Part shown: positions 3,313 to 55,487 of the stretch, one piece after another
Layout: each line of letters starts with the position of its first letter
Numbering within the stretch: the stretch's first letter is position 1
Source of the DNA: Azolla caroliniana
Taxonomy: Eukaryota; Plantae; Polypodiophyta
Direction: 5' to 3'
DNA: 64,000 nt
Assembly: GCA_043228905.1 (NCBI GenBank)
Contig: JBHGNT010000021.1
Location: 9,982,001 to 10,046,000, forward strand
The notes under the pieces: model-generated
The model's database searches: none
Told to the model about the DNA's origin: nothing
Seen by the model: the letters and a program-made list of their open reading frames with translations, nothing else
Position numbers and translations under genes: made by a program

Positions 3313-3674
3313 TTGGGAAACAACGATAGGAAACTTTGGAGTCGGAAGCAACGTGCGCCCGAGACTCAAAGCAATGGCGTAGGAGATTCATGTGGCGAGC
3401 ATTGGAGTATCGGGCTTGGTTGAAGCATCTACCTACTGTTGGGCATCTCTAGTATCTTCGACATTGAAGAAAGGAGCCTACTATTCACAGGTATTTCTCT
3501 TGGTTAAACTCTTCATTTATCCATCATAAGAGAAACATTTTTTGGTGGAAATAAGTTGTGGTGGGAGAGACCCCTTGTCACATTTGGAAGAGAGATTTGG
3601 GGTCAGTGTGAATGTATGGCAGAGCAGATGCCTACAGTTTGTGATTCAGGAGATGTACGCTAGTTAATATTGTT

Positions 3675-8006: not shown

Positions 8007-8431
8007 TGTCAAGAATAGTACTAAAGCAGAGATGGAATTAGTACTAAGAAGAGTAGTACTATTAGTACTAAGAGGACGGGACTGCGTAAGATTCCCGAGA
8101 GAGAGAAAATAAGAAGAGGAGAGAGAGAGATAGGATGATGACAGCAGCTCTTATATTATATGAAAGATAAGTACAAATCGGCTAAGAGGCTTAAGACTGG
8201 TGTTGAACCAATTTGGTTCAACATAATGCTTAGTGCCTTCTTTTATAGTGTTCTCAGGAATAATCCTGAAGCTTCTAGAATGTTCCAGAGAAATCTGGAA
8301 TATACATTACTTTCTTATAATAAAACATAAATGAAAATAATATTCTATGAATTACAATAGATGGTGAGATGGTTAAGAGCTCGACCCATATACCATAAGG
8401 TCATGGGTTCGAGTCTTGCCATCTCATGACA
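8007..8431 (-). repeat. 3' LTR of chromovirus A
   Basis: TGTCA...TGACA termini; direct repeat of 13238-13662. Confidence 0.96.
8360..8426 (+). promoter_or_regulatory. tRNA-like Pol III A-box/B-box module in U3 (second copy 13591-13657)
   Basis: A-box-like TGGTGAGATGG and B-box GGTTCGAGTC preceded by AGGTC, at tRNA spacing; cloverleaf degenerate. Confidence 0.6.
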
Positions 8432-8442
8432 CTATCTCCCCC

Positions 8443-11400
8443 TTAAAGACGACGAGTGGAACGAGTCGGCGCTGATTGCGGACCGGGTTTGTCCGGATAC
8501 TTTCGGTGGAAATCAGCAAGCAAATCCTGAGCATTGGCAACATGCTCGACAGGTTCCCAAGTGCGTTCGCTCGGACTATAACCAACCCAATCGACCAAAT
8601 AATAAAGTTTGTTGCGAAGAAGTTTGGAATCGAGGATGGCAGCAACTTCATACTCCGGGCCGGTGTCCAACTCCAGCGGGGGCGGCGGTGGTGTAACACG
8701 ATTGGGAATGGTGTTTGCTTTATAAGGTTCAAGAAGGGAACAATGGAAAACCGGATGTAGCTGAAGCGGCGGAGGGAGATCAAGGCGGAAGGTGACATCA
8801 TTAACTTTACCCGTAATAAGGAAAGGACCGAGTCGTCGATAATCCAACTTGTCGCATGGTCGAGTAGTCTTGATGTGACGACGTAAGAGCCATACTCGAT
8901 CTCCGATCGCAAAAGAGGAGGGAAGCCGATGACGATCCGCGTAAATCTTCTGTGTCTGTTGAGCATGACGAAGATGAGTCGAGAGATCTGTCTGGATCTT
9001 GCGTAGTCTCTCCAAATGATCCCCGGCACGAGGATTGGTAGGTAGCTCCGGGGTGTCGATCACCGACCAGCGAGGATGAGAACCGGTATACGCGTAGAAG
9101 GGGGAGACTCGAGTCGAGGAGTGAACAGCATTATTATACGCAAACTCCGCAAAGTGGAGAATCTCGGCCCAATCGTCTTGTTGATAACTCAGGAAACACC
9201 GGAGATATTGCTCCAACGTTTGGTTTGTTCGTTCTGCCTGCCCGTCGGTCTGAGGATGGTAGCCGGAGGAGAGGTTGCAAGAGACCTTGAGCATCTTGAA
9301 GAGATGCTGCCAAAATTTGGAGACAAATTGCGGTCCTCGGTCACTAATGATACTGTCTGGGAGGCCATGATGCCGAAATACCTCACGCATGACTAGGACG
9401 GCGGTTTCCTCGCTAGTGATGGCCTTAGTACATGGAACAAAATGTGCCATCTTCGTATATCGATCGACGACGGTTAAGATAGCATCGAACCCCTGCGAGA
9501 CCGGCAAATCTGTGATAAAATCAAGACAAATAGATTGCCACGGCTTACTTGGAATCGGTAAGGGTTCCAACAAGCCATATGGATGGTGTCGTGGCATCTT
9601 TGCTCGACAACAAGCATCACAGGTCCGAACGTAGTCATCGATAAAACGGCGCATGTGGGGCCACCAAAAAGATCGTTGCACTAGCTCCAACGTCTTAGTA
9701 CTACCGAAATGTCCCGCCGTATGGGTGTCGTGACAATGCTGGACGATGTGAAGGCGACAGGAGCAATCGGGGACATATACGCGCTTTTTAAAGAATAACA
9801 AACCATCATGATATTCGAATTGTCGGTAGTCAATACCTGGTTGTTGAGACTGAGAACAGGATGCCCGAGAAGTATCAATGTGCGCCAAGATGTTTTGAGA
9901 AAAACTATCCGTCTTCAAGTTTGCACGTATGTCGTCGGTAATCCGTGAATCCATCGGGGTGTGAAAAATCCGCGTCGTGTGCAATCGTGTTGGTCCCAAG
10001 ATTACTTGCTTTTGATTATCAAATGTTGGATCACCAGGACGAGGTGCAAGATATGAACGCCGTGACAGTGCATCTGCTTTTCCTTGCTGCTTCCCCGGTC
10101 GATATGTGATTTTGAAGTCGAAACGCGTGAGGAATTGCGCCCACCGAGCTTGCCGTCGATTTAGTACGCGAGCGTTCTGGAAATAAGCAAGATTTTTATG
10201 ATCACTAAAGACAACGACCTGATGTGGAGAGCCCTCTAAGAAATGCCGCCATTGCACAAATGAATCCACGATGGCTAATAATTCCTTGTCATGTATTTCG
10301 TAGTTGATTTCCGCAACATCGAATTTGCGCGAATGGAAAGCCACCGGATGCAACTCTTCTTTATCTCCTTGTTGAGAAAGGATGCTACCGAGGGCGAAAT
10401 CTGAAGCATCGGCCTCCATGATGAATGGTTTGCTAGTATCCACATGAGCTAGAATCGGTGCTGATGTAAAGGCTTTCTTAAGATGCCGAAAAGCCATATC
10501 TGCTTCAATGGACCAAAGAAATGCTTGGCCCTTCTTCGTAAGTTGTGTGAGGGGTAAGATAATCTTCGAGTAATCCTGTATAAACTTACGGTAGAAGTTA
10601 GCAAAACCTAGAAAACATTGTACATCTCGTACCGACCGTGGAATTTGCCACTCTAGTACAGTTTGGACTTTAGCTGGATCCATGGCGATGCCCTTTGAGG
10701 AGATGACGTAGCCTAGAAATTCCACTTGCTTGCAGTCAAAGCTACATTTTTCTAGCTTGGCATAAAGACCATTCTCGCGGAGTCGCTTTAGTACTAATAG
10801 TACATGAGAATCGTGCTCTTCCTGGGTCTTCGAATAAATCAACAGATCATCCAGATAAATGATCAAACAGATATCTAAGAGGTCTCTGAATATATCATTT
10901 GCCATGTGTTGGAAGACTGCGGGTGCATTGGTTAGGCCAAACGGCATAACAGTATACTCGAAATGCCCATACCGCGTGCGAAAAGCGGTCTTCCACTCAT
11001 CTCCCGGTCGGATCCGCACGAGATTATACGCTCCTCGTAGGTCGATTTTAGTAAAAAACTTGGCACCATTAACTCGCTCTAAAAGACTTGATATAAGAGG
11101 AAGTGCATACCTATTCCGGATGGTGACTTTATTCAATCCGCGGTAATCAACGACAAGACGAAGTGAGCCATCTTTCTTCTTGACAAAGAAGATGGGTGCA
11201 CCGGCCGGAGATTTCGAATGACGGATGAACCCGCTTGCCAAGTTCTCCTCTATGTAGGCTCGAAGGACTTCTAACTCGGTGGGTGACAAGTTGTAAATTG
11301 GTCCCCATGGTGGCTCGGTTCCTGGTTGTAAATCGATGGGACAGTCATAGGGACGGTGATGAGGAAGGGTACCGGCTTTTACCTTGTCAAATACATCGGC

Positions 11401-12015
11401 ATAAGGATGATATTTTGCCGGAAGTTGTACTGAGGAGTCCTTCTTAATAGTGCTGGAAGGATGTACTGATATGGCAAATAGGAACATTGCCTCCTTGGGT
11501 CCTTCTTCACGTAGTTGATGGAGTGAAATGGTCGAAACTCGGTGAGTTGATTCTTGGGGTGGTCGATATCGGACTTCTCTTGTTCTCCAATCTATGGCTG
11601 GATTATGTAATTCAAGCCAAGGTAATCCTAGGACAATGGGATGCTCTGGACTACTAATTATATTAAATGATATTATACACACAAAACTACCTAGGACAAC
11701 TTGAATGGGTTCTGATTCTTCTACAATATTCCCGGAAGCAATGGGACGACCATCAATGACCACTACAGATGCGGGACAAGGAAGTTTTCTTAAGGATATC
11801 TGAGAAGCTTGGGCAAAATTTCGATCCATGAAACAGGAATTAGCTCCAGAATCTAAAAGTGCTAGGACGGGTACTGGGGGAGTACTTTTAGTACTAACAA
11901 TGACTTGGGCTAGGAACACATTGCTAACTTGCTTGGAAGGAATGGAACCACTAATGGGCTGTACAGATCTAGGGCTGCTGTCCAACCAAATGGCTCCTAT
12001 TTTGGCTGGACTCAA
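8443..12015 (-). CDS. pol: Pol polyprotein (PR-RT-RH-INT-chromodomain), in -1 frame to gag
   Basis: LLDSGA protease, YLDD RT, DASD RNase H, HHCC and DDE integrase, GPF motif, chromodomain YEVAAILDS...YLVDWVGYSPSERTWEP. ORF has no ATG at its start. Confidence 0.95.
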   Translation of the reverse strand: MSPAKIGAIWLDSSPRSVQPISGSIPSKQVSNVFLAQVIVSTKSTPPVPVLALLDSGANSCFMDRNFAQASQISLRKLPCPASVVVIDGRPIASGNIVEESEPIQVVLGSFVCIISFNIISSPEHPIVLGLPWLELHNPAIDWRTREVRYRPPQESTHRVSTISLHQLREEGPKEAMFLFAISVHPSSTIKKDSSVQLPAKYHPYADVFDKVKAGTLPHHRPYDCPIDLQPGTEPPWGPIYNLSPTELEVLRAYIEENLASGFIRHSKSPAGAPIFFVKKKDGSLRLVVDYRGLNKVTIRNRYALPLISSLLERVNGAKFFTKIDLRGAYNLVRIRPGDEWKTAFRTRYGHFEYTVMPFGLTNAPAVFQHMANDIFRDLLDICLIIYLDDLLIYSKTQEEHDSHVLLVLKRLRENGLYAKLEKCSFDCKQVEFLGYVISSKGIAMDPAKVQTVLEWQIPRSVRDVQCFLGFANFYRKFIQDYSKIILPLTQLTKKGQAFLWSIEADMAFRHLKKAFTSAPILAHVDTSKPFIMEADASDFALGSILSQQGDKEELHPVAFHSRKFDVAEINYEIHDKELLAIVDSFVQWRHFLEGSPHQVVVFSDHKNLAYFQNARVLNRRQARWAQFLTRFDFKITYRPGKQQGKADALSRRSYLAPRPGDPTFDNQKQVILGPTRLHTTRIFHTPMDSRITDDIRANLKTDSFSQNILAHIDTSRASCSQSQQPGIDYRQFEYHDGLLFFKKRVYVPDCSCRLHIVQHCHDTHTAGHFGSTKTLELVQRSFWWPHMRRFIDDYVRTCDACCRAKMPRHHPYGLLEPLPIPSKPWQSICLDFITDLPVSQGFDAILTVVDRYTKMAHFVPCTKAITSEETAVLVMREVFRHHGLPDSIISDRGPQFVSKFWQHLFKMLKVSCNLSSGYHPQTDGQAERTNQTLEQYLRCFLSYQQDDWAEILHFAEFAYNNAVHSSTRVSPFYAYTGSHPRWSVIDTPELPTNPRAGDHLERLRKIQTDLSTHLRHAQQTQKIYADRHRLPSSFAIGDRVWLLRRHIKTTRPCDKLDYRRLGPFLITGKVNDVTFRLDLPPPLQLHPVFHCSLLEPYKANTIPNRVTPPPPPLELDTGPEYEVAAILDSKLLRNKLYYLVDWVGYSPSERTWEPVEHVANAQDLLADFHRKYPDKPGPQSAPTRSTRRL

Positions 12016-13169
12016 TCGTTTAACTCTTCATCTAATTGACTAAGGATTTCAAATTTATTTGAGATACTTGGGCTATTAGTACTATGAATACTATCTGACA
12101 CTCTATTAGTACTATTAATACTATCAGACACTCCGAAGGGAAGAATTGACTCGGGTTTAGTACAGGCGACGATTTGATTTACCTGTCTTCTTGGCCTATG
12201 GGGACAATTGATGGCGATATGTCCTGGTCCACCGCAATAAAGACATAATCGATTGGCACGTCGTCGTTGCTTTTCTTCTTCCGATAACGGGCCGCGTCGA
12301 CGCATGGTATCGATCTCCATCGGTGTCGAAGTATTTGCTTGAGGTATGTCTCGTGCAAATGGTTTAGCCGCGACTGCGGCGTAAGTGGGCTCTGGTCTAG
12401 AGCGTGGTATCTGTAATTGACGTTCTGAACGCCGTTCGAACAGGCGGTTGTCACATCGAACTGCTCGACTGATTGCCTCCGTAAGAGACTTTGGTTCTTC
12501 GGGGAAAGTGAGAAGTAGATCTTTGACATCGTTTCGCAAGCCATAGCGAAACTGCTCCATTAGTGCTTGATCATCCCAGGGTATATCTGAAGCAAGTAGG
12601 CGGAAATCCGCCGCGTAGGCAGAGGCTGGACGATCGCCTTGACGCAATCGCCGGATCTTGTTGATCGCCGTCCTGATGCTGTCGGTGTCTCCAAAGCAGG
12701 CTTTAAACTCACCAATAAAATCTTCAAAGTTATTAAGCAAGGGGGATTGTTTTTCTAGAAGCGGAGCGAACCATGCCAAGGCTGAGCCGCTAAGTAGCGT
12801 GCCTATTAGGCCGACTCGAGATGCATCAGTGGGATATCGGGAAGGATGCATCTGGATGACTAAGCGTACCTGATTAAGGAATCCCCGGAATTGCGAACGC
12901 GTTCCATCAAATTTCACAGGAAGTCCAATCTTGGGCTCTTTATGAAATCCTTGGGGACTGGATCCTTGTTGTTGCAACGCTGCTTCGAGTTGTTGTACCC
13001 GTAACGCTAACTCCCCATGTTGTTGTTGCGTTTGTTGTTTTTCGAGAGCGATTTGTTGCAGATCCCCTATCAGCCGTTGGTTTTCTTGTTCCAGGGCCAC
13101 AAACTTTTCTTTTAGGCACTGTAGCTCGGAGAAAACGGATTGGTATTCTTGGGCGCTAACAATAGCCAT
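12012..13169 (-). CDS. gag: Gag (PEG10/Ty3 capsid-like) with CCHC zinc knuckle
   Basis: 385 aa; N-terminal coiled-coil, PVKFDGTRSQFRGF, LRQGDRPASAYAADF, PMEID, CLYCGGPGHIAINC. Confidence 0.95.
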   Translation of the reverse strand: MAIVSAQEYQSVFSELQCLKEKFVALEQENQRLIGDLQQIALEKQQTQQQHGELALRVQQLEAALQQQGSSPQGFHKEPKIGLPVKFDGTRSQFRGFLNQVRLVIQMHPSRYPTDASRVGLIGTLLSGSALAWFAPLLEKQSPLLNNFEDFIGEFKACFGDTDSIRTAINKIRRLRQGDRPASAYAADFRLLASDIPWDDQALMEQFRYGLRNDVKDLLLTFPEEPKSLTEAISRAVRCDNRLFERRSERQLQIPRSRPEPTYAAVAAKPFARDIPQANTSTPMEIDTMRRRGPLSEEEKQRRRANRLCLYCGGPGHIAINCPHRPRRQVNQIVACTKPESILPFGVSDSINSTNRVSDSIHSTNSPSISNKFEILSQLDEELND

Positions 13170-13237
13170 AGTATAGGGAAAAGGGTAGGAGGATGAGGGA
13201 GAGTGACAAGTAGGCTAGAGGGGAAATTGGTTCAAAC

Positions 13238-13662
13238 TGTCAAGAATAGTACTAAAGCAGAGATGGAATTAGTACTAAGAAGAGTAGTACTATTAGTACT
13301 AAGAGGACGGGACTGCGTAAGATTCCCGAGAGAGAGAAAATAAGAAGAGGAGAGAGAGAGATAGGATGATGACAGCAGCTCTTATATTATATGAAAGATA
13401 AGTACAAATCGGCTAAGAGGCTTAAGACTGGTGTTGAACCAATTTGGTTCAACATAATGCTTAGTGCCTTCTTTTATAGTGTTCTCAGGAATAATCCTGA
13501 AGCTTCTAGAATGTTCCAGAGAAATCTGGAATATACATTACTTTCTTATAATAAAACATAAATGAAAATAATATTCTATGAATTACAATAGATGGTGAGA
13601 TGGTTAAGAGCTCGACCCATATACCATAAGGTCATGGGTTCGAGTCTTGCCATCTCATGACA
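13238..13662 (-). repeat. 5' LTR of chromovirus A
   Basis: Direct repeat of 8007-8431; TATAAAA on the minus strand at 13472-13478. Confidence 0.96.
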
Positions 13663-33106: not shown

Positions 33107-33235
33107 TGTCAGGAACTCTATTAAGGCAGAGAAGGAATTAGTACTAAAAGAAGGATTAGTACTATTGTTGGGGAATAGTACTAAGACAGAGAAGGATTAG
33201 TACTATGAGAGGTGTCGAACTTTGAGAGAAGGAAT

Positions 33236-33283
<48 letters not shown>

Positions 33284-33573
33284 TGATGCGAAAGATATAT
33301 GTATTATATGACGGAAGATATACAACAGTAGTTAGAAGGCTTAAGACTGGCGTTGAACCGATTTGGTTCGAACTAATGCCTTGCGCCTCCTTTTATAGTG
33401 TCTTCAGGAATACTCCTGAAGTTTCTAGAATGTTCCAGAGAAATCTGGAATATACATCAATTTCCCAATAAAACCTAAATGAAAATAATATCCTTCAAAT
33501 TACAATTCATACCCTAATGGTAAAGTCTCGACCCGTGTAACAAAAGGTTATGGGTTCGAGTCTAGTTATGACA
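33107..33573 (-). repeat. 3' LTR of chromovirus B
   Basis: TGTCA...TGACA termini; direct repeat of 38409-38869. Confidence 0.95.
33510..33564 (+). promoter_or_regulatory. tRNA-like Pol III A-box/B-box module in U3 (second copy 38806-38860)
   Basis: TACCCTAATGGTAAAG ... AGGTTATGGGTTCGAGTC at tRNA spacing. Confidence 0.6.
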
Positions 33574-36500
33574 CTATCCCCCCTTTAAAACGACGAGTTT
33601 CACGAGTCGTTTTGGATTGAGGACCCGGTTTCTCGGGATATCGTCGATGGAAGTCTTCTAGAAGAGCACGAGCATTGGTCACATTCTCGATCGGTTCCCA
33701 AGTACGCTCGCTGGGACTATATCCTAGCCAATCGACTAGATAGTAGAGCTTGTTGCGAACAATCTTGGAATCGAGGATGGCAGCGACCTCATACTCAGGT
33801 CCATCTTCAAGCTCGATAGGAGGTGGAGGTTGTATAGTACGTCCTGGGATAGTGCTCTCGTGATAGGGTTCGAGGAGAGAACTATGAAACACCGGGTGTA
33901 TCCGAAGTTGTGGAGGTAGCTCGAGACGAAAAGCGACATCATTAATCTTCCCGATAATACGGAAAGGACCTAATCGCCGATAATCCAACTTCTCACATGG
34001 GCGAGTAGTCTTGATGTGTCGTCGTAGCAGCCACACCCGATCTCCAATGTTAAAACTGGATGGAAGTCGATGACGATCTGCGTAGTCCTTGTGTGATTGT
34101 TGAGCTTGCTGGAGTTGAGTAGATAAATCCGCTTGTATCTTGCGTAACCGCTCCAAACGATCCTCCGCGCAAGGATTTGTGGACACTTCTGGGGTTTCAA
34201 GGACACACCACCGGGGATGATATCCCGTATAAGCGTAGAATGGCGTGACTTTAGTCGATGCGTGGATAGCGTTATTATAGGCAAATTCGGCGAACTGAAG
34301 AATATCTGCCCAGTCATTCTGATGATAGTTGAGAAAGCACCGCAGATACTGCTCCAGTGTTTGATTTGTTCGTTCGGCTTGACCGTCGGTTTGTGGGTGG
34401 TAGCCGGAGGAGAGGTTACAAGTGACCTTCAGCATTTTAAAAAGGTGCTTCCAGAATTTTGACACAAACTGGGGTCCACGATCGCTGATGATATTATCAG
34501 GGAGTCCATGATGCCGACATACTTCCCGCATGACAATTTCGGCGGTGTCTTCACTAGATATTTCTTTAGTACATGGTAAGAAATGAGCCATCTTCGTATA
34601 TCGATCCACCACTGTGAGAATCGCACTGAATCCCTTAGAGACTGGAAGATCTGTAATGAAGTCAAGAGCAATGGATTGCCATGGCTTGCTTGGAATTGGT
34701 AATGGTTCTAATAAACCATATGGATGATGTCTTGGCATTTTCGCTCTGCAGCATGTATCGCAAGTCCGAACAAAATCTTCGACAAATTGTCGCATATGGG
34801 GCCACCAGAATGATCGTTGTACTAAATCTAATGTTTTAGTACTACCAAAATGTCCTGCTGTATATGTGTCATGGCAGTTTTGTACTACTCGAAGGCGGCA
34901 AGAACCATTAGGAACATACAAAAGTTCTTTAAAGAAGAGTAATCCATCACAGTATTTGAATTGCCGATAATCCGTACCTGGTGATTGTGATTGTGAACAT
35001 GACGCTCGAGAGGGGTCAATTTGTGCTAGTATAGCTTGGGCGAAAGCGTCAGTCTTCAAGTCCTCACGTATAGTATTGGTAATGTCGGAATCCACGGGCA
35101 TGTCAAAGACCTGTGCTGCTTGCAGTCGTGCTGGACCCAAGATTACTTGCTTCTGGTTATCGAAAGCTGGCTCACCGGGACGTGGTGTTAGATACGAACG
35201 CCGTGATAATGCATCTGCCTTCCCTTGGTGCTTCCCCGGACGATATGTAATTTTGAAGTCGAAGCGTGTGAGGAAGTGGGCCCACCGAGCTTGACGTCGA
35301 TTCAGTACACGAGCATCTTGAAAGTAGGCAAGGTTCTTGTGGTCACTGAATACAGTGACCTGATGAGGAGATCCCTCCAGGAAATGCCTCCATTGCATAA
35401 AAGAATCAACTATTGCTAATAGCTCTTTATCATGAATTTCGTAGTTGATTTCGGCGGCGTCAAACTTACGGGAGTGGAAAGCCACAGGATGTAGCTTCTC
35501 GTCGTTACCCTGTTGTGACAGAATGCTCCCCAATGCGAAATCCGATGCATCAGCTTCGATAATGAATGGTTTTTCCGGATCCACATGACCTAAAATTGGA
35601 GCTGATGTAAACGCCTTCTTAAGACTCTCGAAAGCCATGTCCGTCTCTTTAGACCACATGAATGATTGTCCCTTCCTGGTGAGCTGTGTGAGAGGCAGCA
35701 CAATTTTTGAGTAATTTTGTATGAACTTCCGGTAGAAATTTGCAAAGCCTAGGAAGCATTGCACATCCCGCACCGAACGCGGAGTGTGCCATTCTATCAC
35801 CGTTTTGACCTTGGCTGGGTCCATAGATATGCCTTCTGAGGAGATGACATAGCCGAGAAACTCCACTTGGTTGCACCCGAAACTACATTTCTCTAACTTT
35901 GCATACAGACCATGTTCTCGAAGTCGTTTTAGTACTAATAGTACATGAGAATCATGTTCTTCTTGGGTCTTTGAATAAACCAGTAGATCATCCAAATAGA
36001 TGATCAAAAAATCATCCAAGAGATCTCGAAATATATCATTCGCCATGTGCTGGAAGACTGCCGGCGCATTAGTGAGTCCGAACGGCATGACCGTATACTC
36101 GAAGTGCCCATATCTGGTGCGAAACGCGGTCTTCCATTCATCTCCTGGTCGGATCCGTACGAGGTTATAGGCTCCTCGTAAGTCTATCTTCGTGAAGAAC
36201 CTGGCACCGTTGATCCGTTCTAAAAGACTTGAGATAAGGGGAAGAGCATACCTATTTCTTACTGTGACCTTATTCAAGCCACGGTAATCTACAACGAGTC
36301 GAAGCGAGCCATCTTTTTTCTTGACGAAGAAAATGGGTGCGCCGGCTGGAGATTTCGAATGCCGAATGAAACCGTTCTCCAAATTCTCCTCTATATAGGC
36401 TCGAAGGACTTCTAGCTCGGTTGGTGACAAATTGTAGATCGGCCCCCATGGCGGCTCTTTTCCCGGTTGTAAGTCGATGGCGCAGTCGTACGGCCGATGA

Positions 36501-37123
36501 TGAGGAAGTGTGTTGGCTTGTACTTTATCGAACACATCAGCATACTGACGATACTTCTCGGGAAGTTGAACGGTGGACTCCTCTTTGGTGGTGCTGGAGG
36601 GTTGTACTGATATTGCAAAGAGAAACATTTCCTCCTTGCGCCCTTCCTCACGCAACTGACGTAGCGAAATGGTTGCAACCTTCTGGGTAGATCCTTGGGT
36701 TTGTCGCAACCGGATTTCCCTTGTCCTCCAATCTATGTCTGGGTCATGTAACTCGAACCATGGTAATCCTAAAACTATGGGATGTTCTGGAATACTAATA
36801 ATATTAAATGATACTACACATGTTAAGTTATCTAGGACAATATTAACGGGTTCCGACTCTTCTATGATATTACCAGAAGCAATGGGACGACCATCAATGA
36901 CTACTACTGAGGCTGGACATGGGAGCTTTCTGAGAGATATCTGATGAGCTCGGGCAAAATTCCTATCCATGAAGCAAGAATTAGCTCCGGAATCTAGAAG
37001 GGCTAAGGTATGTACTGGAGGGGTACTTTTAGTACTAACTGCTACTTGGGCTACGAACACATCACTAACTTGCTTAGAGGGAATGGAACCACTAATGGGC
37101 TGCACAGATCTAGGGCTGTCCAA
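33566..37123 (-). CDS. pol: Pol polyprotein (PR-RT-RH-INT-chromodomain), in -1 frame to gag
   Basis: Same motifs as chromovirus A pol; frame is open up to the slippery site at 37156-37162; stop codon lies inside the 3' LTR. Confidence 0.95.
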   Translation of the reverse strand: MDSPRSVQPISGSIPSKQVSDVFVAQVAVSTKSTPPVHTLALLDSGANSCFMDRNFARAHQISLRKLPCPASVVVIDGRPIASGNIIEESEPVNIVLDNLTCVVSFNIISIPEHPIVLGLPWFELHDPDIDWRTREIRLRQTQGSTQKVATISLRQLREEGRKEEMFLFAISVQPSSTTKEESTVQLPEKYRQYADVFDKVQANTLPHHRPYDCAIDLQPGKEPPWGPIYNLSPTELEVLRAYIEENLENGFIRHSKSPAGAPIFFVKKKDGSLRLVVDYRGLNKVTVRNRYALPLISSLLERINGARFFTKIDLRGAYNLVRIRPGDEWKTAFRTRYGHFEYTVMPFGLTNAPAVFQHMANDIFRDLLDDFLIIYLDDLLVYSKTQEEHDSHVLLVLKRLREHGLYAKLEKCSFGCNQVEFLGYVISSEGISMDPAKVKTVIEWHTPRSVRDVQCFLGFANFYRKFIQNYSKIVLPLTQLTRKGQSFMWSKETDMAFESLKKAFTSAPILGHVDPEKPFIIEADASDFALGSILSQQGNDEKLHPVAFHSRKFDAAEINYEIHDKELLAIVDSFMQWRHFLEGSPHQVTVFSDHKNLAYFQDARVLNRRQARWAHFLTRFDFKITYRPGKHQGKADALSRRSYLTPRPGEPAFDNQKQVILGPARLQAAQVFDMPVDSDITNTIREDLKTDAFAQAILAQIDPSRASCSQSQSPGTDYRQFKYCDGLLFFKELLYVPNGSCRLRVVQNCHDTYTAGHFGSTKTLDLVQRSFWWPHMRQFVEDFVRTCDTCCRAKMPRHHPYGLLEPLPIPSKPWQSIALDFITDLPVSKGFSAILTVVDRYTKMAHFLPCTKEISSEDTAEIVMREVCRHHGLPDNIISDRGPQFVSKFWKHLFKMLKVTCNLSSGYHPQTDGQAERTNQTLEQYLRCFLNYHQNDWADILQFAEFAYNNAIHASTKVTPFYAYTGYHPRWCVLETPEVSTNPCAEDRLERLRKIQADLSTQLQQAQQSHKDYADRHRLPSSFNIGDRVWLLRRHIKTTRPCEKLDYRRLGPFRIIGKINDVAFRLELPPQLRIHPVFHSSLLEPYHESTIPGRTIQPPPPIELEDGPEYEVAAILDSKIVRNKLYYLVDWLGYSPSERTWEPIENVTNARALLEDFHRRYPEKPGPQSKTTRETRRFKGGIVS

Positions 37124-37149
37124 CCAAACGGCTCCTATTTTGGCTGGAC

Positions 37150-38319
37150 TTAGTCGTTTAACTCTTCTTCTAATTGGCTAAGGACATCAAATTTGTTTGC
37201 GAGATTCAGACTATTAGTACTATTAGGACTATTATGACTATGAGGATTATCAGAGATTCCTACTGAAATAGACTCGGGTTTAGTATAGTCAGAACTAACA
37301 ATGACTTGGTTTACCTGCCTTCTTGGTCTATGGGGACAGTTTATCGTGATATGCCCTGGTCCACCGCAATAAAGGCATAATCGGTTTGTTCGGCGTCGTT
37401 GCTTTTCCTCCTCCGATAGCGGCCCACGACGACGTGTAGTGTCAATTTCCATTGGAGTTGGAGTACTTACTGGAGGCGCATTATGTGACTCCCTTTGAAA
37501 AGGTTTCGCTACCACTGAGGCATAGGTAGGCTCGGATCTTGCCCTCGGCATCTGAAATTGTCGTTCCGAACGTCGCTCGAAGAGGCGGTTGTCACATCTG
37601 ACCGCTCGACTGATTGCTTCTGTTAATGATTTTGGCTCTTCAGGGAAAGTCAAGAGTAAATCCTTGACATCGTTGCGTAGACCATAGCGGAACTGCTCCA
37701 TCAATGCTTGATCATCCCAGGGGATATCGGCGGCGAGTAGGCGGAAATCTGCAGCATATGCGGAGGCTGGACGGTCACCTTGGCGTAATCGCCGGATTTT
37801 GTTGATTGCAGTCCTTATGCTGTCAGTATCTCCAAAACATGCTTTAAACTCACTTATGAATTCTTCAAAATTATTTAGTACTGGAGATTCCTTTTCTAGT
37901 AGCGGAGCGAACCATGCTAATGCTGAGCCATTTAACAACGTGCCTACTAAACCCACTCGTGATGCATCGGTGGGATATCGGGACGGATGCATTTGAATAA
38001 CTAACCGTACCTGGTTAAGAAACCCTCTAAACTGCGATCGCGTTCCATCGAACTTCGTGGGAAGGCCAATCTTGGGTTCTTTATGAATCCCTTGTGCTCC
38101 GTGCCCTTGTTGTTGCATTGCTACGATGGTTGCTTCGAGTTGTTGCACGCGTAACGCAAGTTCCCCATGCTGTTGTTGCGTTTGCTGCTTTTCTAAGGAA
38201 ATTTGCTGAAGATCCCCCAACAAGCGTTGATTTTCTTGTTCCAAAGCATGAAACTTCTCTTTCAAACATTGAAATTCCGAGAAAACGGATTGATACTCTT
38301 CAGCGCTAACGGTGGCCAT
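37150..38319 (-). CDS. gag: Gag with CCHC zinc knuckle
   Basis: 389 aa, closely similar to 12012-13169. Confidence 0.95.
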   Translation of the reverse strand: MATVSAEEYQSVFSEFQCLKEKFHALEQENQRLLGDLQQISLEKQQTQQQHGELALRVQQLEATIVAMQQQGHGAQGIHKEPKIGLPTKFDGTRSQFRGFLNQVRLVIQMHPSRYPTDASRVGLVGTLLNGSALAWFAPLLEKESPVLNNFEEFISEFKACFGDTDSIRTAINKIRRLRQGDRPASAYAADFRLLAADIPWDDQALMEQFRYGLRNDVKDLLLTFPEEPKSLTEAISRAVRCDNRLFERRSERQFQMPRARSEPTYASVVAKPFQRESHNAPPVSTPTPMEIDTTRRRGPLSEEEKQRRRTNRLCLYCGGPGHITINCPHRPRRQVNQVIVSSDYTKPESISVGISDNPHSHNSPNSTNSLNLANKFDVLSQLEEELND

Positions 38320-38408
38320 GGGATGAAGGAAAAGGGAAATAAGAGACTAGTAGGAAAGGAGGGAGACAGAAGGAAGAGGGAGACTAGTAGACCAAAATCG
38401 GTTCAAAC

Positions 38409-38537
38409 TGTCAGGAACTCTATTAAGGCAGAGAAGGAATTAGTACTAAAAGAAGGATTAGTACTATTGTTGGGGAATAGTACTAAGACAGAGAAGGATT
38501 AGTACTATGAGAGGTGTCGAACTTTGAGAGAAGGAAT

Positions 38538-38579
<42 letters not shown>

Positions 38580-38869
38580 TGATGCGAAAGATATATGTAT
38601 TATATGACGGAAGATATACAACAGTAGTTAGAAGGCTTAAGACTGGCGTTGAACCGATTTGGTTCGAACTAATGCCTTGCGCCTCCTTTTATAGTGTCTT
38701 CAGGAATACTCCTGAAGTTTCTAGAATGTTCCAGAGAAATCTGGAATATACATCAATTTCCCAATAAAACCTAAATGAAAATAATATCCTTCAAATTACA
38801 ATTCATACCCTAATGGTAAAGTCTCGACCCGTGTAACAAAAGGTTATGGGTTCGAGTCTAGTTATGACA
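38409..38869 (-). repeat. 5' LTR of chromovirus B
   Basis: Direct repeat of 33107-33573; TATAAAA on the minus strand at 38687-38693. Confidence 0.95.
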
Positions 38870-43117: not shown

Positions 43118-43781
43118 TCTATATCGGACTGTGCAGATCGTATTAGTTGAGCGACATGCACCGTCCGTGGTCGTGATTCCCTCACCAAGTGGTTAATAGA
43201 CACGTTGATGGTCATGTTTATGTATATGTATAGACCGTCATGTATGTATGTATGCCCATGCTTGTCTCTAATTGCTACCAAATCATAAAGAGGCATGGCG
43301 AGGGAATCGCGGCCACAGACGGTGCATGTCATAAAGATTTTCGCCAACTGATGTGATTTGCACCGTCCTTGTAGCCAAGGGTGCGTTGTCGTAAAGATTT
43401 TCGCCAACGGTGTGAAAATTGAATGGAATGTACAAAATCGAGTGTGGTTCTTCACACACAACATAAAACAATAATAGTGAAGATACTACTTTATACTAGT
43501 TTAATATCTTGGTACAAAAATATGGAGGTCCTCAAGAGCTTCCGAATGTACTTTATTACATTTGAAACGGACAACTAAATGTCAAGTTATGTGAATGTGA
43601 AGTTTGAGAAGAAGAAGAGAAAAACAAAATTGTGAGACATCCTACATAGATAGGAGGACAACATCAGGATTTAAGAGTACATAAGTAGAGCCATATCTCT
43701 TTATATTTTATCTACGTGCTAAGAGCACAAAAAGGTTTGGTTGTATAACTTGGATGAATGGATGCAGCCAAGTTATTCAAA

Positions 43782-43950
43782 TAGTGTTTTGGACGGACCC
43801 GGACCCGGACAGACGGCGACGGAACCAGACCCGAACCTGGACCTGGACGAACGGCGACGGAACTGGAGCTGGAGCCGTAACCGGACGGCAATGGAACCGG
43901 AACCGGAACGAACAGACCGAATCACCGGGTCGGAAGCAAACCGGATAGGT
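43782..43950 (+). mobile_element. Possible hAT-type DNA transposon terminus
   Basis: TAGTGTTTT followed by clustered ACCGG/ACGG repeats; no matching other end found. Confidence 0.35.
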
Positions 43951-44603
43951 TGATCGCGACAATTTCGGTGTGAAACCTATTAAAAATTTGTAATCAAAGG
44001 GATGCAAGGAAAGCTTGAACCTTGCACCTCCAAGATATGAGGCAATAAACTTACCACTAAGCCAAGTCATGTCTTTAGAATTGTTTTTACTATCATTATA
44101 CTTTCTCATGTAAATTCTCATACATGAGAGCTTCAATGACTGACATGGTTATCATGGAACACATGTAATACATGAGCACCAAATGGCAAACATGCATCTC
44201 ATGCATGTCTTGCACCCTCACAAGCATCATATGCATGGGGGCATCTATAAAAGAGTGGATGGAGAGGAAAAACGGGCTATGTATTAATCAAGAAATTAAA
44301 AAACAAAAAATAAATCGTTATCCAATTGATGATGCATCTTGTTCTTCAAATCAAAAGTCAAGAGTTCAATCTTAATCTCTCTCTCCATTTCAATCTTTCT
44401 CAATCTGTTTCAAAATTGTAATCTTAATCTCAATCTATCTTAAATCCTTTCTCGCTAAAGCTAGTGCAATCTTCGAGTCCTTCCGGTCCAGAACCCCGGC
44501 GGTTATACCTCACGATCCGCACATAGTGACGGATCTTCATGACAGCGTACAATCTGCGCTGTCCGATCTGGATAAAAAAAAACGTGCCGTCAAAAAAGTT
44601 GAC

Positions 44604-47796: not shown

Positions 47797-48622
47797 TGTC
47801 GTGCCTTTCGGCTCCGGATCGTTGCGTGAGTCGGGTGGGAACCACAGAGGTCTTGGACTAGGAGAAAGAAGTTCGTGAGATAGAGATTAATTATGAGTAA
47901 ATAGCAAAGAGAAAGATAAGAAACTCGTGAATCACACGAGTATACTATATTAATTGGTACTTAGGGTGTTAAGAGAGAAGTAGATGTATAAATCGCGAAT
48001 CCCACGAATAAATTTTGTATTGATTAATTCTTAATCCAAATAATCAACAACAACTACAATGTGCTCCCCATCCTTATATAGTGATGGGAGAGACTAAGCA
48101 TAGCTACATGCTTTTTCTCATATGTTCACACACACTAAATGTGCATGTGATGCTTTTTTTTTTATTTCCTAAGTATAGGGCTCATGCACGCTAGACGTGC
48201 ATGAGTTATTTTTAGTGTCTCGTCTTTTTCATATATTAAAAAAATACACGATTTACCTTTTAATAAAGGTATGCATAAATAAAGGTCTTATACGTATTAA
48301 ATCTATATTTAAAACACTTAAGATAAGTTAATGTAATGGTAAGGTTGGGGTTTGTCAACGTGGAGGTGCAGAGTTTGAATCACGCCTTGTGCAGTAGTGA
48401 GTATTTCCTGTCTTTTTTTTACATTTATGTCTCTTTATCCGGCTCTTCCTTGCCGGTATGCCGTTTTCTTCCTTGCCGGTATGCCGTTTTTCCTCCTTGC
48501 CGGTATGCCGTTTTCCTCCTTGCCGGTATGCCGTTTTCTTCCGGTTCTCACCGAGCACTCCATTCTCTATCCGGAGGGACAAAAATATAATTTCCACATA
48601 GTGTGCAACCTACACTACGACA
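47797..48622 (-). repeat. 3' LTR of the Ylt1-like element (4 units of a ~23-bp repeat)
   Basis: TGTCGT...ACGACA termini; direct repeat of 54611-55487. Confidence 0.95.
48329..48420 (+). promoter_or_regulatory. tRNA-like Pol III module with T-run terminator in U3 (second copy about 55143-55234)
   Basis: TAATGTAATGGTAAG ... AGGTGCAGAGTTTGAATC at tRNA spacing, T8 run at 48413-48420. Confidence 0.5.
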
Positions 48623-51600
48623 CTCGCCCCCTCCAAACCCGCACATCCTCCGGTATGTGCCGAAGTTCTTGATTCTTCGTATCCGTCTTCATCCGAAGCT
48701 TCCTCCGATTCTCCCCTTATGTCGACTATGAGTTGTAATCCACTTTCTTCGCTTCCCGCATCATTGTGGTCTTCGTCCGATTGCTCCTCGTTGTCAGCCT
48801 CGACTTGGATCACATAAGGTTTGTCGTCGGTCCGCTTCTTGAAAATCTTTACCCGCTTCCCGGCTATAGGCACTCGTAGTATTGTTCCATCCAACTCGGA
48901 CAGTCGGTACGTCCCGTTGTCGAAGACCTTCCGAACCTCGTACGGCCCGAACCACCTTTTCGCGAATTTCCGCATCGTTGTATGTTGATGGTCCAAGCTA
49001 CTATCATAGACGATCACCCAATCTCCTTCTTCAATCCTCCTCGGTCGTAGTCGGTGCTTTGTGTCGAACCGGCTTTTGTTCTGGAACCGTGCTTCTTGTT
49101 GTCGGCGTGACGCTTCCGCTACATCTTTCGGTCTTCCCTCCAGTTGTCGTATCCGGACCGCTAGTAGTTCTTCCCGGCTCATCTCTTCCTTCCACGGTAG
49201 TATTGTTCCATCCAACTCGGACAGTCGGTACGTCCCGTTGTCGAAGACCTTCCGAACCTCGTACGGCCCGAACCACCTTTTCGCGAATTTCCGCATCGTT
49301 GTATGTTGATGGTCCAAGCTACTATCATAGACGATCACCCAATCTCCTTCTTCAATCCTCCTCGGTCGTAGTCGGTGCTTTGTGTCGAACCGGCTTTTGT
49401 TCTGGAACCGTGCTTCTTGTTGTCGGCGTGACGCTTCCGCTACATCTTTCGGTCTTCCCTCCAGTTGTCGTATCCGGACCGCTAGTAGTTCTTCCCGGCT
49501 CATCTCTTCCTTCCACGGTAGTATTGTCCATGTCGCGATTGCGGTTTCCGTTGGCATTACCGGTGCTTGTCCGGTCATGAGTTCTGCCGGCATATAACCG
49601 GTCACGGAGCTATGCGTCGTCCGATCCGCCCATAGTGCATACGGAAGCATTTGTGGCCAATCCTTCACCCTTCCGTCGCATGCCTTCGCAAGTGCTTTCA
49701 CGATCGGACTATGTCCTCGTTCGATCTTCCCGTTGGCCTCCGGATTGTAGGCCGTTGTCAACGTTAACCGAACTCCATGTTTGGCGAAGAATCCCCTAGC
49801 TTTGTCCGAGTCGAGTTCTCCCCGGTCCGCAATCACTTGTCCTACGCAGCCGTACCTACAAAACACTTCTTCCAAAAGAAATTGGCACACCGCGGCACAC
49901 GTTTTCCTCCGAAGCGCTCGACCTTCAACTTGGTTTGTGAGATCTTCTCGAGCTAACACCAAGTATTTCTTTTGTCCAATCCCGGTCGGCATAGCTACAA
50001 TGTCGACCATCCACTTGAAGTTGATTGTCGGTGAGAATGTCGGATGCAGCTCATCTCGGTGTCGGACCCCGGAGTAGACTTGACATTTCTCGCAGCTTTC
50101 TGTGAACTCCGCGACATCTTTATACATGTTCTTCCACCAATATCTTTGCTTGATTTTCACAAAAGTTGCCCATGTTCCTCGATGTCCAGCCCAATCGGAT
50201 TCGTGGAAATTGGACATTATCCGGTTTCGTTGCTCTTTCGTCCCGACTACTCGAAGTGGTATCCCATCCGGTCTTTTCGGCGTCCTCCAAATTAAACCGT
50301 TTTCCAAGAAGAACTTTTGGACTTGCCTCTTCTTCCTTCGGATCTCGGCTCTCCTTTCTTTATCATTGGTTGAATCCTCGACCTCTTGTAGCATCTTCCC
50401 GATCATCAAGGTTTCCCCCTCGTATTCTTCTTCCCGGAATTCTCGGATCACGTTCACTCGGCATATGTGTTCTGACGTGAAGTAGTCTTCGGAAACTTCT
50501 TCATTATCTGATTCGGTTATGTCGTCTTCAAACCGCGCCCTCGATAACATGTCCGCTACCGCGTTGTCCTTCCCCGAGATGTGTCGAACCTCCGGATTAA
50601 GTGACTTGACATATGCAATCCACCTTAGCATAGCCACATCCGGTATCGTACAACACCGCATCATCCCGAGTATCGGAAGACAATCCGTCTCGATCACCAC
50701 TTCAGCTCCGATCAAATAATCCCGATCCGATTTTATCGCCGACACGACTCCCCACAATTCTCTTTTGACTTGTGCATATCCGCGTTGCCTTTCGTTGAGG
50801 ACCTTTGCTCCAAATCGGATCGGATACCGCGAACCATCCGAGTCGGCTTGATTGATGACCCACCCGATACCGGTTGGACTTGTATCAACCGTTACTATGA
50901 TTGGCCGCTCGTAGCTTGGCTTCCTAAGTGATTCCGCCCTCCATAGTGTCTTCTTGAGCTTCCTCATGGCTTTAGTGTGTTCCGGTTTCCACTCGAATTT
51001 CTTACCTTTCCGCAACAAGTGATAGAGCGGGTCCGCTATATGTGCATAGTGCGGAATCCATATGTGATAGAATGCACACGCACCCAGAAACCTTCGGACT
51101 TCCGATGTTGACTCACATACTTCCTTCATAGCTTGAATCGCATCGATCTTTGTTGGTGACGGTCTTCGGCCGTAGGGTCCACATAGATGTCCGACCACCA
51201 ATATTTCTTCTTGCCCGAATGCCGATTTCTCCCCGGAAAGTGTTAGGTGCACATCTTCTAGCTTTCGCAACACTTTCTCGCAATCATGAATATGGTCGAC
51301 CACGAACTTTCGGCATCCCCGATCATCCATAGTCTCATCTTTTTCTTCCACCGCGCATCCTTTCATCGGAATGTCATCTAGAAACGGCATCGTTATCTCC
51401 GGAATGCAATCTCGAAGCACCTTGTTCATCGCGTTCATCATATGTGCAACCGAGTTTGTCGCTCCTTGTGGTAGTGTGCACATTCGAACTAGTCCTATCG
51501 GTGTCCGCATGGTAGTGATGTCTCGGCTCTCCACGGCTAGTTGGAATTGGTCATATCCCGAGTATAGGTCCCCGATGGAGTATATCGCACGTCCGGCAAA

Positions 51601-52398
51601 AGCTTCCGCGAATTCGTCCACTATCGGACCGACTCCCAAGTTCCGGATCGTGACCTTGTTCACCGGTTGCAAGTCTTGGATGAATCGGAGTGACCCATTC
51701 TTCTTCGGAACCGTAAACCATCGATTTGAGTACGGAGCACTTGATGGCTCTAGAATCCCCATCGCCACCTTCTCCTTGAGCAAGTCGATGACTTTCGGAA
51801 TATGCGCCCGTGGCACCGGAATCGGCTTCAGGTTCCACGGTACATGATCAATCGTGAAAATCACCATCGGCTCCACTATCTTTGGATCAATGCATCCGAT
51901 CTCCCTCGATGTGAACGCGAATGCTTTGCCATGTTGCTCCAACATCTCTCGAAACCGTTTTTCTTCTTCTTGTAAGAGGAACCCACCTCCACCGATCCGA
52001 AGTTTCTTCCGGGTCTCATCTGTGAAGGCATGTCCGATATCCACGGACTTCCGAAGTGTCGGATCTCCCGAGACTTCTTTCTTCTTTTGTTCGCTATCGG
52101 CGGGTAGTGGTCCCGCGGCCGGTTTCACCTTCTTCTCCACGGTCTTGTATTTCGTACTTACCATTGCTTCTTCTTTGCGGAGCGCATCCGGCCCCATTTT
52201 CGCAACGATCTCGTACATCTCGACCGATTCCACCGGGACTACCCGGTTCCCTTGGCTTTTATCTTCCGCAAGCTCTTCAAGCCGTTGTAGTGTATTCCCA
52301 TAGAACACTTCCTCGATCACTCCCACGATTTCTTCGTCTTCTTTTATTATTGATGCCGACCGTAACTTATCCTCCACTTGTCGGTATTGTTTCTTCAT
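48610..52398 (-). CDS. pol: Pol (RT-RH-INT) with duplicated GPY/F C-terminal module; -1 frame open to 52542
   Basis: LRFIQDLQPVN, LPQGATNS, FLDD RT; VDTSPTGIG RNase H; HHCC and DDE integrase; 107-aa tandem repeat; stop inside the LTR. Confidence 0.94.
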   Translation of the reverse strand: MKKQYRQVEDKLRSASIIKEDEEIVGVIEEVFYGNTLQRLEELAEDKSQGNRVVPVESVEMYEIVAKMGPDALRKEEAMVSTKYKTVEKKVKPAAGPLPADSEQKKKEVSGDPTLRKSVDIGHAFTDETRKKLRIGGGGFLLQEEEKRFREMLEQHGKAFAFTSREIGCIDPKIVEPMVIFTIDHVPWNLKPIPVPRAHIPKVIDLLKEKVAMGILEPSSAPYSNRWFTVPKKNGSLRFIQDLQPVNKVTIRNLGVGPIVDEFAEAFAGRAIYSIGDLYSGYDQFQLAVESRDITTMRTPIGLVRMCTLPQGATNSVAHMMNAMNKVLRDCIPEITMPFLDDIPMKGCAVEEKDETMDDRGCRKFVVDHIHDCEKVLRKLEDVHLTLSGEKSAFGQEEILVVGHLCGPYGRRPSPTKIDAIQAMKEVCESTSEVRRFLGACAFYHIWIPHYAHIADPLYHLLRKGKKFEWKPEHTKAMRKLKKTLWRAESLRKPSYERPIIVTVDTSPTGIGWVINQADSDGSRYPIRFGAKVLNERQRGYAQVKRELWGVVSAIKSDRDYLIGAEVVIETDCLPILGMMRCCTIPDVAMLRWIAYVKSLNPEVRHISGKDNAVADMLSRARFEDDITESDNEEVSEDYFTSEHICRVNVIREFREEEYEGETLMIGKMLQEVEDSTNDKERRAEIRRKKRQVQKFFLENGLIWRTPKRPDGIPLRVVGTKEQRNRIMSNFHESDWAGHRGTWATFVKIKQRYWWKNMYKDVAEFTESCEKCQVYSGVRHRDELHPTFSPTINFKWMVDIVAMPTGIGQKKYLVLAREDLTNQVEGRALRRKTCAAVCQFLLEEVFCRYGCVGQVIADRGELDSDKARGFFAKHGVRLTLTTAYNPEANGKIERGHSPIVKALAKACDGRVKDWPQMLPYALWADRTTHSSVTGYMPAELMTGQAPVMPTETAIATWTILPWKEEMSREELLAVRIRQLEGRPKDVAEASRRQQEARFQNKSRFDTKHRLRPRRIEEGDWVIVYDSSLDHQHTTMRKFAKRWFGPYEVRKVFDNGTYRLSELDGTILPWKEEMSREELLAVRIRQLEGRPKDVAEASRRQQEARFQNKSRFDTKHRLRPRRIEEGDWVIVYDSSLDHQHTTMRKFAKRWFGPYEVRKVFDNGTYRLSELDGTILRVPIAGKRVKIFKKRTDDKPYVIQVEADNEEQSDEDHNDAGSEESGLQLIVDIRGESEEASDEDGYEESRTSAHTGGCAGLEGASVVV

Positions 52399-52532
52399 TC
52401 CTCCGGTTACGGCCGTGTACGTAGATGCCCCATCCGGCCCGATTCGTACTTGTTTTGCTCCGAGAGTTTTCTTCCTGTGTGGGGTATCAGGGCTTCTCGG
52501 ACTATCACTTCCCCACTCCGCAACAGTCCGCT

Positions 52533-54572: not shown

Positions 54573-54590
54573 CTCCTTGCCACCCGTTTT

Positions 54591-54606
54591 CACGTCGGGT
54601 TCACCA
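54591..54606 (-). promoter_or_regulatory. PBS complementary to plant cytosolic tRNA-Trp
   Basis: TGGTGAACCCGACGTG matches the recalled 3' end CACGTCGGGTTCACCA of plant tRNA-Trp; 4 nt from the LTR. Confidence 0.8.
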
Positions 54607-54610
54607 ACTG

Positions 54611-55487
54611 TGTCGTGCCTTTCGGCTCCGGATCGTTGCGTGAGTCGGGTGGGAACCACAGAGGTCTTGGACTAGGAGAAAGAAGTTCGTGAGATAGAGA
54701 TTAATTATGAGTAAATAGCAAAGAGAAAGATAAGAAACTCGTGAATCACACGAGTATACTATATTAATTGGTACTTAGGGTGTTAAGAGAGAAGTAGATG
54801 TATAAATCGCGAATCCCACGAATAAATTTTGTATTGATTAATTCTTAATCCAAATAATCAACAACAACTACAATGTGCTCCCCATCCTTATATAGTGATG
54901 GGAGAGACTAAGCATAGCTACATGCTTTTTCTCATATGTTCACACACACTAAATGTGCATGTGATGCTTTTTTTTTTATTTCCTAAGTATAGGGCTCATG
55001 CACGCTAGACGTGCATGAGTTATTTTTAGTGTCTCGTCTTTTTCATATATTAAAAAAATACACGATTTACCTTTTAATAAAGGTATGCATAAATAAAGGT
55101 CTTATACGTATTAAATCTATATTTAAAACACTTAAGATAAGTTAATGTAATGGTAAGGTTGGGGTTTGTCAACGTGGAGGTGCAGAGTTTGAATCACGCC
55201 TTGTGCAGTAGTGAGTATTTCCTGTCTTTTTTTTACATTTATGTCTCTTTATCCGGCTCTTCCTTGCCGGTATGCCGTTTTCTTCCTTGCCGGTATGCCG
55301 TTTTCCTCCTTGCCGGTATGCCGTTTTTCCTCCTTGCCGGTCGGTATGCCGTTTTTCCTCCTTGCCGGTATGCCGTTTTCCTCCTTGCCGGTATGCCGTT
55401 TTCTTCCGGTTCTCACCGAGCACTCCATTCTCTATCCGGAGGGACAAAAATATAATTTCCACATAGTGTGCAACCTACACTACGACA
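54611..55487 (-). repeat. 5' LTR of the Ylt1-like element (6 units of the ~23-bp repeat)
   Basis: Direct repeat of 47797-48622, 51 bp longer. Confidence 0.95.

Follow-up and report, generated by a model that had tools for sequence, protein, structure and literature searches.

Two lineages of autonomous Gypsy retrotransposons in a 64,000-nucleotide stretch of Azolla caroliniana DNA (the window, analysed over its whole length) carry, in the U3 region of their long terminal repeats (LTRs), a cassette of tRNA-type promoter boxes that points antisense to the element. Judging from the sequence, this cassette is quite probably an RNA polymerase III (Pol III)-type promoter maintained by selection, whatever its effect might be. 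We tentatively propose, by analogy with known systems, that an antisense type 2 Pol III promoter in the U3 of these autonomous elements could serve as a portable chromatin barrier or open-chromatin anchor.

The window is composed of nested retrotransposons, and a search with ARAGORN yielded no tRNA genes in it. Element A (positions 8007..13662, minus strand) is a self-priming, Tcn1-like chromovirus with identical LTRs of 425 nt each (8007-8431 and 13238-13662), intact gag (12012-13214) and pol (8443-12027) frames on the same strand, and a target-site duplication (TSD) of TGGAA. Element B (33107..38869, minus strand; TSD CATAA) is of the same lineage, its Pol being 83% identical to that of A, and is inserted into a Copia element; its LTRs (33107-33573 and 38409-38869) differ from one another solely by a 6-nt repeat indel. 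Because the LTR pairs are near-identical and both TSDs are 5 nt long, the two insertions are judged to be recent. In both elements gag and pol are separate frames, and pol ends in a classical chromodomain (Pfam Chromo, E values of 2e-12 and 2e-14). The two frames overlap at 12012-12027 in A and at 37150-37177 in B, which suggests programmed frameshifting. Elsewhere in the window, arrays of ~150-nt repeats at 4569-6363, 20456-21349 and 60264-60598 flank the old Gypsy element that hosts A and are possibly its LTRs, and an exon of a host DnaJ-like C11 gene lies at 62641-62919 (minus strand); the two named proteins among its four matches are from ferns (58-59%).

Neither A nor B has a tRNA primer site. 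The primer-binding site of A (13224..13235, minus strand) is not of the TGG tRNA type and is complementary over 12 nt to the element's own LTR. Its counterpart in B (38395-38406) bears the same self-priming signature: the match is 12 nt long at offset 2 in both elements, and both partners in B have changed compensatorily relative to A. In the 3' LTR copy of A, these signals span 8203..8247 (minus strand): a Pol II TATA box lies at 8247-8242 and the self-primer sequence 33 nt downstream at 8214-8203. The self-primer would mark the Pol II transcript start, and hence the end of U3, 217 nt into the LTR. A near-perfect palindrome spans the U3-R border (~8201-8223), and the self-primer sequence forms one of its arms. 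A second, imperfect palindrome in the U3 of A (8251-8292), between the cassette and the TATA box, is strongly conserved between A and B, and its TTCTAGAA repeats are found in several relatives; we presume that it may be an enhancer resembling a heat-shock element. Under the REXdb rule for Tcn1 (PMC6317226; here and below, papers are cited for the sections drawn on), an element has no tRNA primer-binding site and its 5' LTR includes a self-primer no shorter than 10 nt; A and B conform to this rule. Self-priming, together with the chromodomain and the separate gag and pol frames, fits the placement of both elements among the Tcn1-type chromoviruses, an identity that the earlier note on this DNA did not recognise. 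Among the matches listed, those with names belong to elements of fungi, vertebrates, algae and protists, and none is from a seed plant.

The cassette comprises an A box, the motif AGGTC at tRNA positions 44-48, and a B box (G53-C61). In the 3' LTR of A it occupies 8362..8415 on the plus strand (A box 8362-8372, AGGTC 8398-8402, B box 8407-8415), 16 nt from the LTR edge, and an identical copy in the 5' LTR (13593..13646, plus strand) is directed into flanking DNA. The cassettes of B lie at 33510..33562 in the 3' LTR (A box 33510-33520, B box 33554-33562) and, as an identical copy, at 38806..38858 in the 5' LTR, both on the plus strand. Because A and B are minus-strand elements, these cassettes are antisense, and because the inferred Pol II start lies well inside the LTR, that of A falls within U3. 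The earlier note had placed such motifs at 8360..8426 and 33510-33564, antisense to the elements at the outer edge of U3. They are present there, on the strand opposite to the elements and upstream of the inferred Pol II start, and recur in both other LTRs. Measured against the general A-box and B-box consensus strings, the A boxes of A and B each depart from TRGYNNARYGG at one position, as had been noted, and the B boxes at none; the G18-to-G53 distances of 36 nt (A) and 35 nt (B) were likewise reproduced.

When both strands of the window were scanned for the two boxes with at most one mismatch in total and a spacing of 30-45, five matches were obtained, compared with a mean of 0.55 in 20 dinucleotide shuffles. 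The LTRs of A and B account for four of these, and a solo LTR designated D for the fifth. Upstream of the A box of A lies a stretch of 90% AT (8312..8341, plus strand) that is a predicted TFIIIB site. The A box is separated from the Pol II TATA box, and points away from it, by ~115 nt in A and B, 247 nt in a third element designated C, and 183 nt in D. Thousands of variant contigs cover the LTR in four DNA sequencing runs; among 105 variable positions, the 40 listed include none within 8398-8415, and 8367, 8368 and 8374 fall in the A box or next to it. Of three further runs presumed to be RNA, one is probably DNA, another gave 11 short contigs of less than 90% identity and the third gave none, a result that carries no information on expression.

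The cassette is more widespread than the earlier note described, since it also occurs in a Gypsy element without a chromodomain and in a solo LTR. Element C (47797..55487, minus strand) is Phygy-like, has a TSD of GCGT (a 4-nt NCGN site), and carries a tRNA-type primer-binding site, which we take to be of the Trp tRNA type. Its LTRs (47797-48622 and 54611-55487) differ only by a 51-nt indel, and its Pol is 24% identical to that of A. The antisense cassette of its 3' LTR (48329..48420, plus strand) begins with the A box at 48329 and includes a B box at 48373-48381 with T at position 56 and a run of eight T residues at 48413-48420; that of the 5' LTR (55143..55234, plus strand) has T at position 56 as well. 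Solo LTR D (43387..44544, plus strand), also flanked by GCGT, is collinear with the LTR of C (alignment score of 161 versus a shuffled maximum of 113.5). Its antisense cassette (43982..44064, minus strand) has an A box from 44064, a B box at 44020-44012 with T at position 61, and a run of five T residues at 43986-43982. Each of the two B boxes thus has one non-consensus base. In both C and D the cassette is upstream of the Pol II TATA box with a 35-nt spacing, and the T runs follow the A box by 84 nt (C) and 78 nt (D).

A matrix trained on the cassettes of eight families from outside the window identified seven sites of at least 22 bits in the window, all in the LTRs of A through D (four in A and B, two in C and one in D). 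The next site reaches 19.2 bits, and 60 shuffles of the window gave no site of at least 20 bits. Eight other LTR-like regions of the window, Copia LTRs among them, lack the cassette (best score, 12.6 bits). Alignments of A and B LTRs with C and D LTRs give weak scores near the shuffled maxima, and the cassettes are not paired to each other. The NCGN target site, the absence of a chromodomain and the compact coding region fit Phygy for C and D, and the Phygy-like side is represented by these two LTR families only. Named relatives of C are proteins from a liverwort (Riccia) and a fern (Adiantum), at ~70%. As side observations, the outer U3 of C contains GC-rich tandem repeats of 23-24 nt (48444-48551 and 55258-55416), with similar repeats in D, and the cassettes of C and D retain letters like those of an anticodon loop (T33, GTC or CAT, A37) though the stems are gone, approximately at 48353-48359 (plus strand) and 44040-44034 (minus strand) as read from the alignment.

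Relatives were gathered with an alignment of integrase and chromodomain ends, yielding 100 loci; the metagenome scan covered 16 of 64 parts, with the best 80 of 577 retained. In 68 of these loci we could locate the beginning of an LTR together with a minimum of 100 nt of sequence. Cassette-bearing labels were fixed before the tree was built, 13 by rule and three by eye. In a quick integrase tree of 69 rows, 14 loci plus A and B fall on one side of a branch (SH-aLRT of 94), and the cassette pattern is seen in all 16 LTRs of this subclade. Under a strict rule that permits at most two mismatches within the first 150 nt, 13 of the 16 clade LTRs pass, every one antisense, compared with none of the 54 other LTRs (one of 54 when the first 400 nt are used) and with 0-7 per 1000 shuffled U3 sequences. 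The three that miss the rule (L005, L015 and L026) are low-coverage contigs with substitutions, yet they align in register. When the spacing is left free between 28 and 60 nt, the best score occurs at 35 or 36 in all 16, eight of which had trained the matrix. Because the 14 related loci carry contig names of one assembly series, they may stem from few related hosts. Viral contigs contained no relatives of A by single-protein search, two distant ones by alignment, and no relatives of C. Outside the clade, weaker antisense tRNA-like boxes were observed in L075 (~720-776, minus strand, 16 bits) and L095 (~3310-3361, minus strand, 21 bits), hinting at further separate captures in distant elements.

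We then consider which parts of the cassette are conserved. The near-copies L003, L008 and L009 were left out, and the remaining 13 families were aligned without anchoring. Between subclades, identity is 0.78 in the B box, 0.84 at positions 44-48 and 0.58 in the A box, versus 0.38 in the spacer and 0.36-0.47 upstream. In eight distant representatives, identity is 0.89 at core box positions and 1.0 at positions 44, 46 and 47, and the spacer is at 0.35, the free box positions 59-60 at 0.43 and the downstream sequence at 0.29; positions 49-52 are at 0.48. When C and D are included (15 sequences), nine of 74 columns are invariant, and eight of these nine are promoter or promoter-adjacent positions. 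T8, G18, A44, G46, T47, G53, T54 and A58 do not vary, R9, Y11 and R57 always agree with the consensus, and free positions are variable. B-box substitutions do occur, with C56 kept in 11 and C61 in 12 of the 15. The distance from the A box to the LTR edge ranges from 69 to 103 nt, while the spacing of the boxes is fixed.

These data bear out, across 13 diverged families, the proposal that the boxes persist while flanking bases diverge, and the comparison of box with flank over family LTRs that had been suggested as a check favours the boxes. The original observation, drawn from A and B, stood for the B box (9/9 identical) and failed for the A box (5/11, versus 63/71 for the upstream U3); this pair cannot test box conservation, because it represents only two families at 83% Pol identity. 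Conservation of positions 44-47 fits recognition of DNA, because yeast TFIIIC contacts the base at +47 and transcription is affected when positions between +44 and +47 are changed (PMC11724288). The yeast A box is required for TFIIIB positioning and not for TFIIIC binding (PMC11724288). Across the aligned LTRs, AT content peaks at 89% at 30-21 nt upstream of the A box and is 55-65% at 100-200 nt upstream. AT enrichment is weaker at non-angiosperm tRNA genes (PMC13437025), and an AT-rich U3 can also have causes other than TFIIIB.

The cassettes do not appear to encode a tRNA-shaped RNA. A covariance-model search, also proposed in the earlier note, which counted the lack of a score above shuffled controls against its reading, gave no match to the Rfam tRNA model at E ≤ 10 for the cassettes of A, B, C or D, a result indicating a promoter relic and not a tRNA-shaped RNA. 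Cloverleaf pairing is at the level of chance (48% versus 49% in shuffled sequences), although one D-stem pair, 11-24, is paired in 14 of 15 with covariation. No consensus pairs were found in the cassette alignment, and ARAGORN at lowered thresholds returned noise only (0 at 90, 39 at 80). A cassette-derived pattern matched six sites in the viral contigs, and since all six are ARAGORN tRNA genes, the motif is tRNA-derived in kind. A tRNA-type Pol III promoter under selection is well supported by this comparison, in which the TFIIIC-read positions are kept and neither the stems nor the spacer are; the two effects suggested in the earlier note, a silencing barrier or a source of antisense RNA, are weighed below as candidates.

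How such a promoter might act can be outlined as follows. A tRNA gene or a tRNA-derived SINE would have been copied into an ancestral LTR. The resulting cassette, presumably competent for initiation, would load TFIIIC and TFIIIB beside the Pol II promoter of the element, with the two promoters facing away from each other, and would block silencing that spreads from flanking repeats, so that the selected effect would be on chromatin and not exerted via RNA. Loading of TFIIIB, and not of TFIIIC alone, is suggested because the A box is kept and an AT-rich stretch lies upstream of it. Because U3 is copied to both LTRs at each transposition, every new insertion would carry its own barrier. Given the antisense orientation, any Pol III transcript from the 5' LTR would lead away from both the Pol II start and the genes. 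We favour the barrier because the DNA positions read by Pol III factors are kept, whereas the fold, sequence and end of the predicted RNA vary. Elements A, B and C are all inserted within other retrotransposons, in coding or internal regions, and a chromodomain of the same class, from a fungus, targets heterochromatin (PMC3350952). The barrier at the tRNA-Ala gene of S. pombe cen1 requires the TATA element and the A box and is orientation-independent (PMC2040200).

Several points weigh against the barrier. The function is assigned by analogy with yeasts, and a review of plant barriers, in the sections drawn on, cites no tRNA or TFIIIC barriers outside animals and yeast (PMC9540200). In Arabidopsis heterochromatin, methylated, clustered tRNA genes are silent (PMC7544208), so resistance to silencing cannot be assumed for a Pol III promoter in a plant. 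Orientation-independence by itself leaves the all-antisense arrangement of the copies unexplained. The young element C has T56 in both LTRs, and D has T61. Finally, the T runs of C and D, located at a tRNA-like distance, suit an RNA product. That two autonomous Gypsy lineages captured a tRNA promoter and keep it reversed in U3 as a self-carried insulator, which would leave their copies transcribable in heterochromatin and would be the first tDNA-type barrier in plants, is a possibility that we hold with considerable reserve.

The main alternative is that the promoter is kept for its RNA, which might control copy number, supply small RNAs or act as a decoy. The products would be a short uncapped RNA of ~90-100 nt from C and D and, from the 3' LTR of A, a long antisense read-through that passes the polypurine tract and enters the part coding for integrase and chromodomain. 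This explanation accounts for the strict antisense orientation in 16/16 chromovirus-clade LTRs and in C and D, and it draws on the T8 and T5 runs just mentioned and on stretches of four T residues inside the LTR in six of 13 related loci. It can also point to strong hairpins: the cassette of A folds as one long hairpin of -36 kcal/mol (z of -6.6 to -6.9, with none of 200 shuffles equally stable), and its close kin L001 and L054 give z values of -3.5 and -3.4. A precedent exists in simian foamy virus, whose U3 yields Pol III miRNAs (PMC3993851). However, the sequence, fold and end of the predicted RNA are all unconserved. Only three of 15 cassettes have z below -3, the value for B being -1.7, and in the chromovirus clade the distance to the first T4 ranges between 54 and 1423 nt, with none inside the LTRs of A and B. 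Transcripts that run past the LTR edge would, moreover, differ between the 5' and the 3' copy in A and in B. We regard selection for an RNA as rather unlikely.

A second alternative places the activity on the genomic RNA, where the cassette would anneal to the D and T arms of a host tRNA and so assist packaging, dimerisation or strand transfer. The Ty3 split primer site and the HIV-1 U3 are precedents for tRNA annealing at the RNA 3' end. U3 belongs to the 3' end of the genomic RNA, in which the cassette is the complement of tRNA; conservation is almost unbroken from position 44 to 61; and C has a tRNA-type primer site. Against these points, A and B are self-priming, with a compensatory change in the 12-nt match, and can do without a tRNA primer, positions 49-52 and 59-60 vary beyond wobble in the manner of free promoter positions, and the AT-rich upstream stretch would be left without a role. 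Annealing is improbable on this evidence.

If the cassette were a SINE or tRNA copy that had entered ancestral LTRs and was merely inherited as a neutral relic, this would explain the lost stems, the lack of an Rfam tRNA match and the B-box substitutions in several copies. Such a relic is strongly disfavoured, and in our estimate highly improbable, by the invariant columns set against a spacer identity of 0.35, by a box spacing that stays fixed as the distance to the LTR edge changes, and by the presence of the cassette in two lineages with 24% Pol identity. Hardly likely, too, is a role of the promoter as landing pad or decoy for elements, possibly of its own family, whose integration sites lie upstream of Pol III genes: the three LTR pairs of the window differ by repeat-length indels only, the aligned upstream sequence of 13 families has no obvious insertion, and A, B and C lie inside other retrotransposons in a window without ARAGORN tRNA genes, albeit a small sample. 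Scarcely credible is a conserved RNA or DNA hairpin at the LTR end with the boxes as its arms, which the stability of the A cassette might recommend; with no strong fold in 12 of 15 cassettes and no consensus structure, it is refuted as a clade-wide explanation and confined to the A subfamily.

If the barrier is real, it would explain how elements that insert into other transposons retain active promoters, and it would offer a small, natural and mutable test of insulation by a tRNA-type promoter in plants. If instead the cassette is kept for its RNA, it would represent a Pol III route to retrotransposon self-control. The fixed sites make either reading directly testable. In the sources drawn on, Pol III promoters of plant LTRs are a feature of non-autonomous elements, whose transcription they are believed to drive. 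That role is closed to a conserved promoter that lies antisense in autonomous elements, which must therefore do something else.

Our literature search, which covered few subscription papers and few Repbase entries, found no description of an antisense tRNA-type promoter in autonomous plant LTRs. Tcn1 resembles A and B in its classical chromodomain, self-priming and separate gag and pol, and Phygy resembles C and D in its NCGN target, lack of a chromodomain and compactness (PMC6317226, PMC2864245, PMC3350952); a tRNA-like LTR promoter found no mention in the portions drawn on of the main texts of Neumann et al. 2019, Novikova et al. 2010 and Novikov et al. 2012. In the corresponding sections of a sugar beet preprint and a mosquito paper, nothing closer than Helenus or the foamy virus was found.

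The Cassandra elements, which the earlier note rightly named as a precedent while omitting Helenus, the closest case, also have a Pol III promoter within a plant LTR. They differ in that this promoter is 5S-derived, of type 1, and drives the RNA of the element itself, which is non-autonomous (PMC10886601, PMC12786077). A 2025 review treats Cassandra as the exception to the Pol II transcription of plant LTR elements (PMC12786077). The cen1 tRNA-Ala barrier of S. pombe shares with our cassettes a TATA-like stretch upstream of an A box and a B box, and its activity requires assembled Pol III machinery, but it is a fixed gene of a yeast host with no transposon as carrier (PMC2040200). The units of foamy virus (Kincaid et al. 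2014, PMC3993851) are similar in consisting of A and B boxes in an autonomous U3 beside a Pol II promoter; they produce defined hairpin RNAs and have terminators, whereas neither is conserved here.

Helenus (TRIMp3; Kojima 2024, PMC10886601) has tRNA-derived sequence in its LTRs that is conserved around boxes A and B. Its tRNA is mostly non-functional, a SINE insertion into the LTR has been proposed as its source, and one plant family, in Selaginella, is reported; the same paper, whose analysis is restricted to TRIMs, mentions tRNA-like parts in "not a few LTRs" of Repbase. Helenus elements are non-autonomous and 311-1263 bp long, in contrast to the autonomous Gypsy elements of 5.7-7.7 kb with a Pol II TATA box described here. 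The tRNA-like part of Helenus is in the sense orientation in two supplement LTRs, including that of the Selaginella family, and is proposed to transcribe the element (PMC10886601). The cassettes of A through D are antisense in U3 and therefore cannot make genomic RNA. This comparison suggests that the cassette, with the function proposed above, is a tDNA-like promoter that is neither a tRNA gene nor a form of Helenus.
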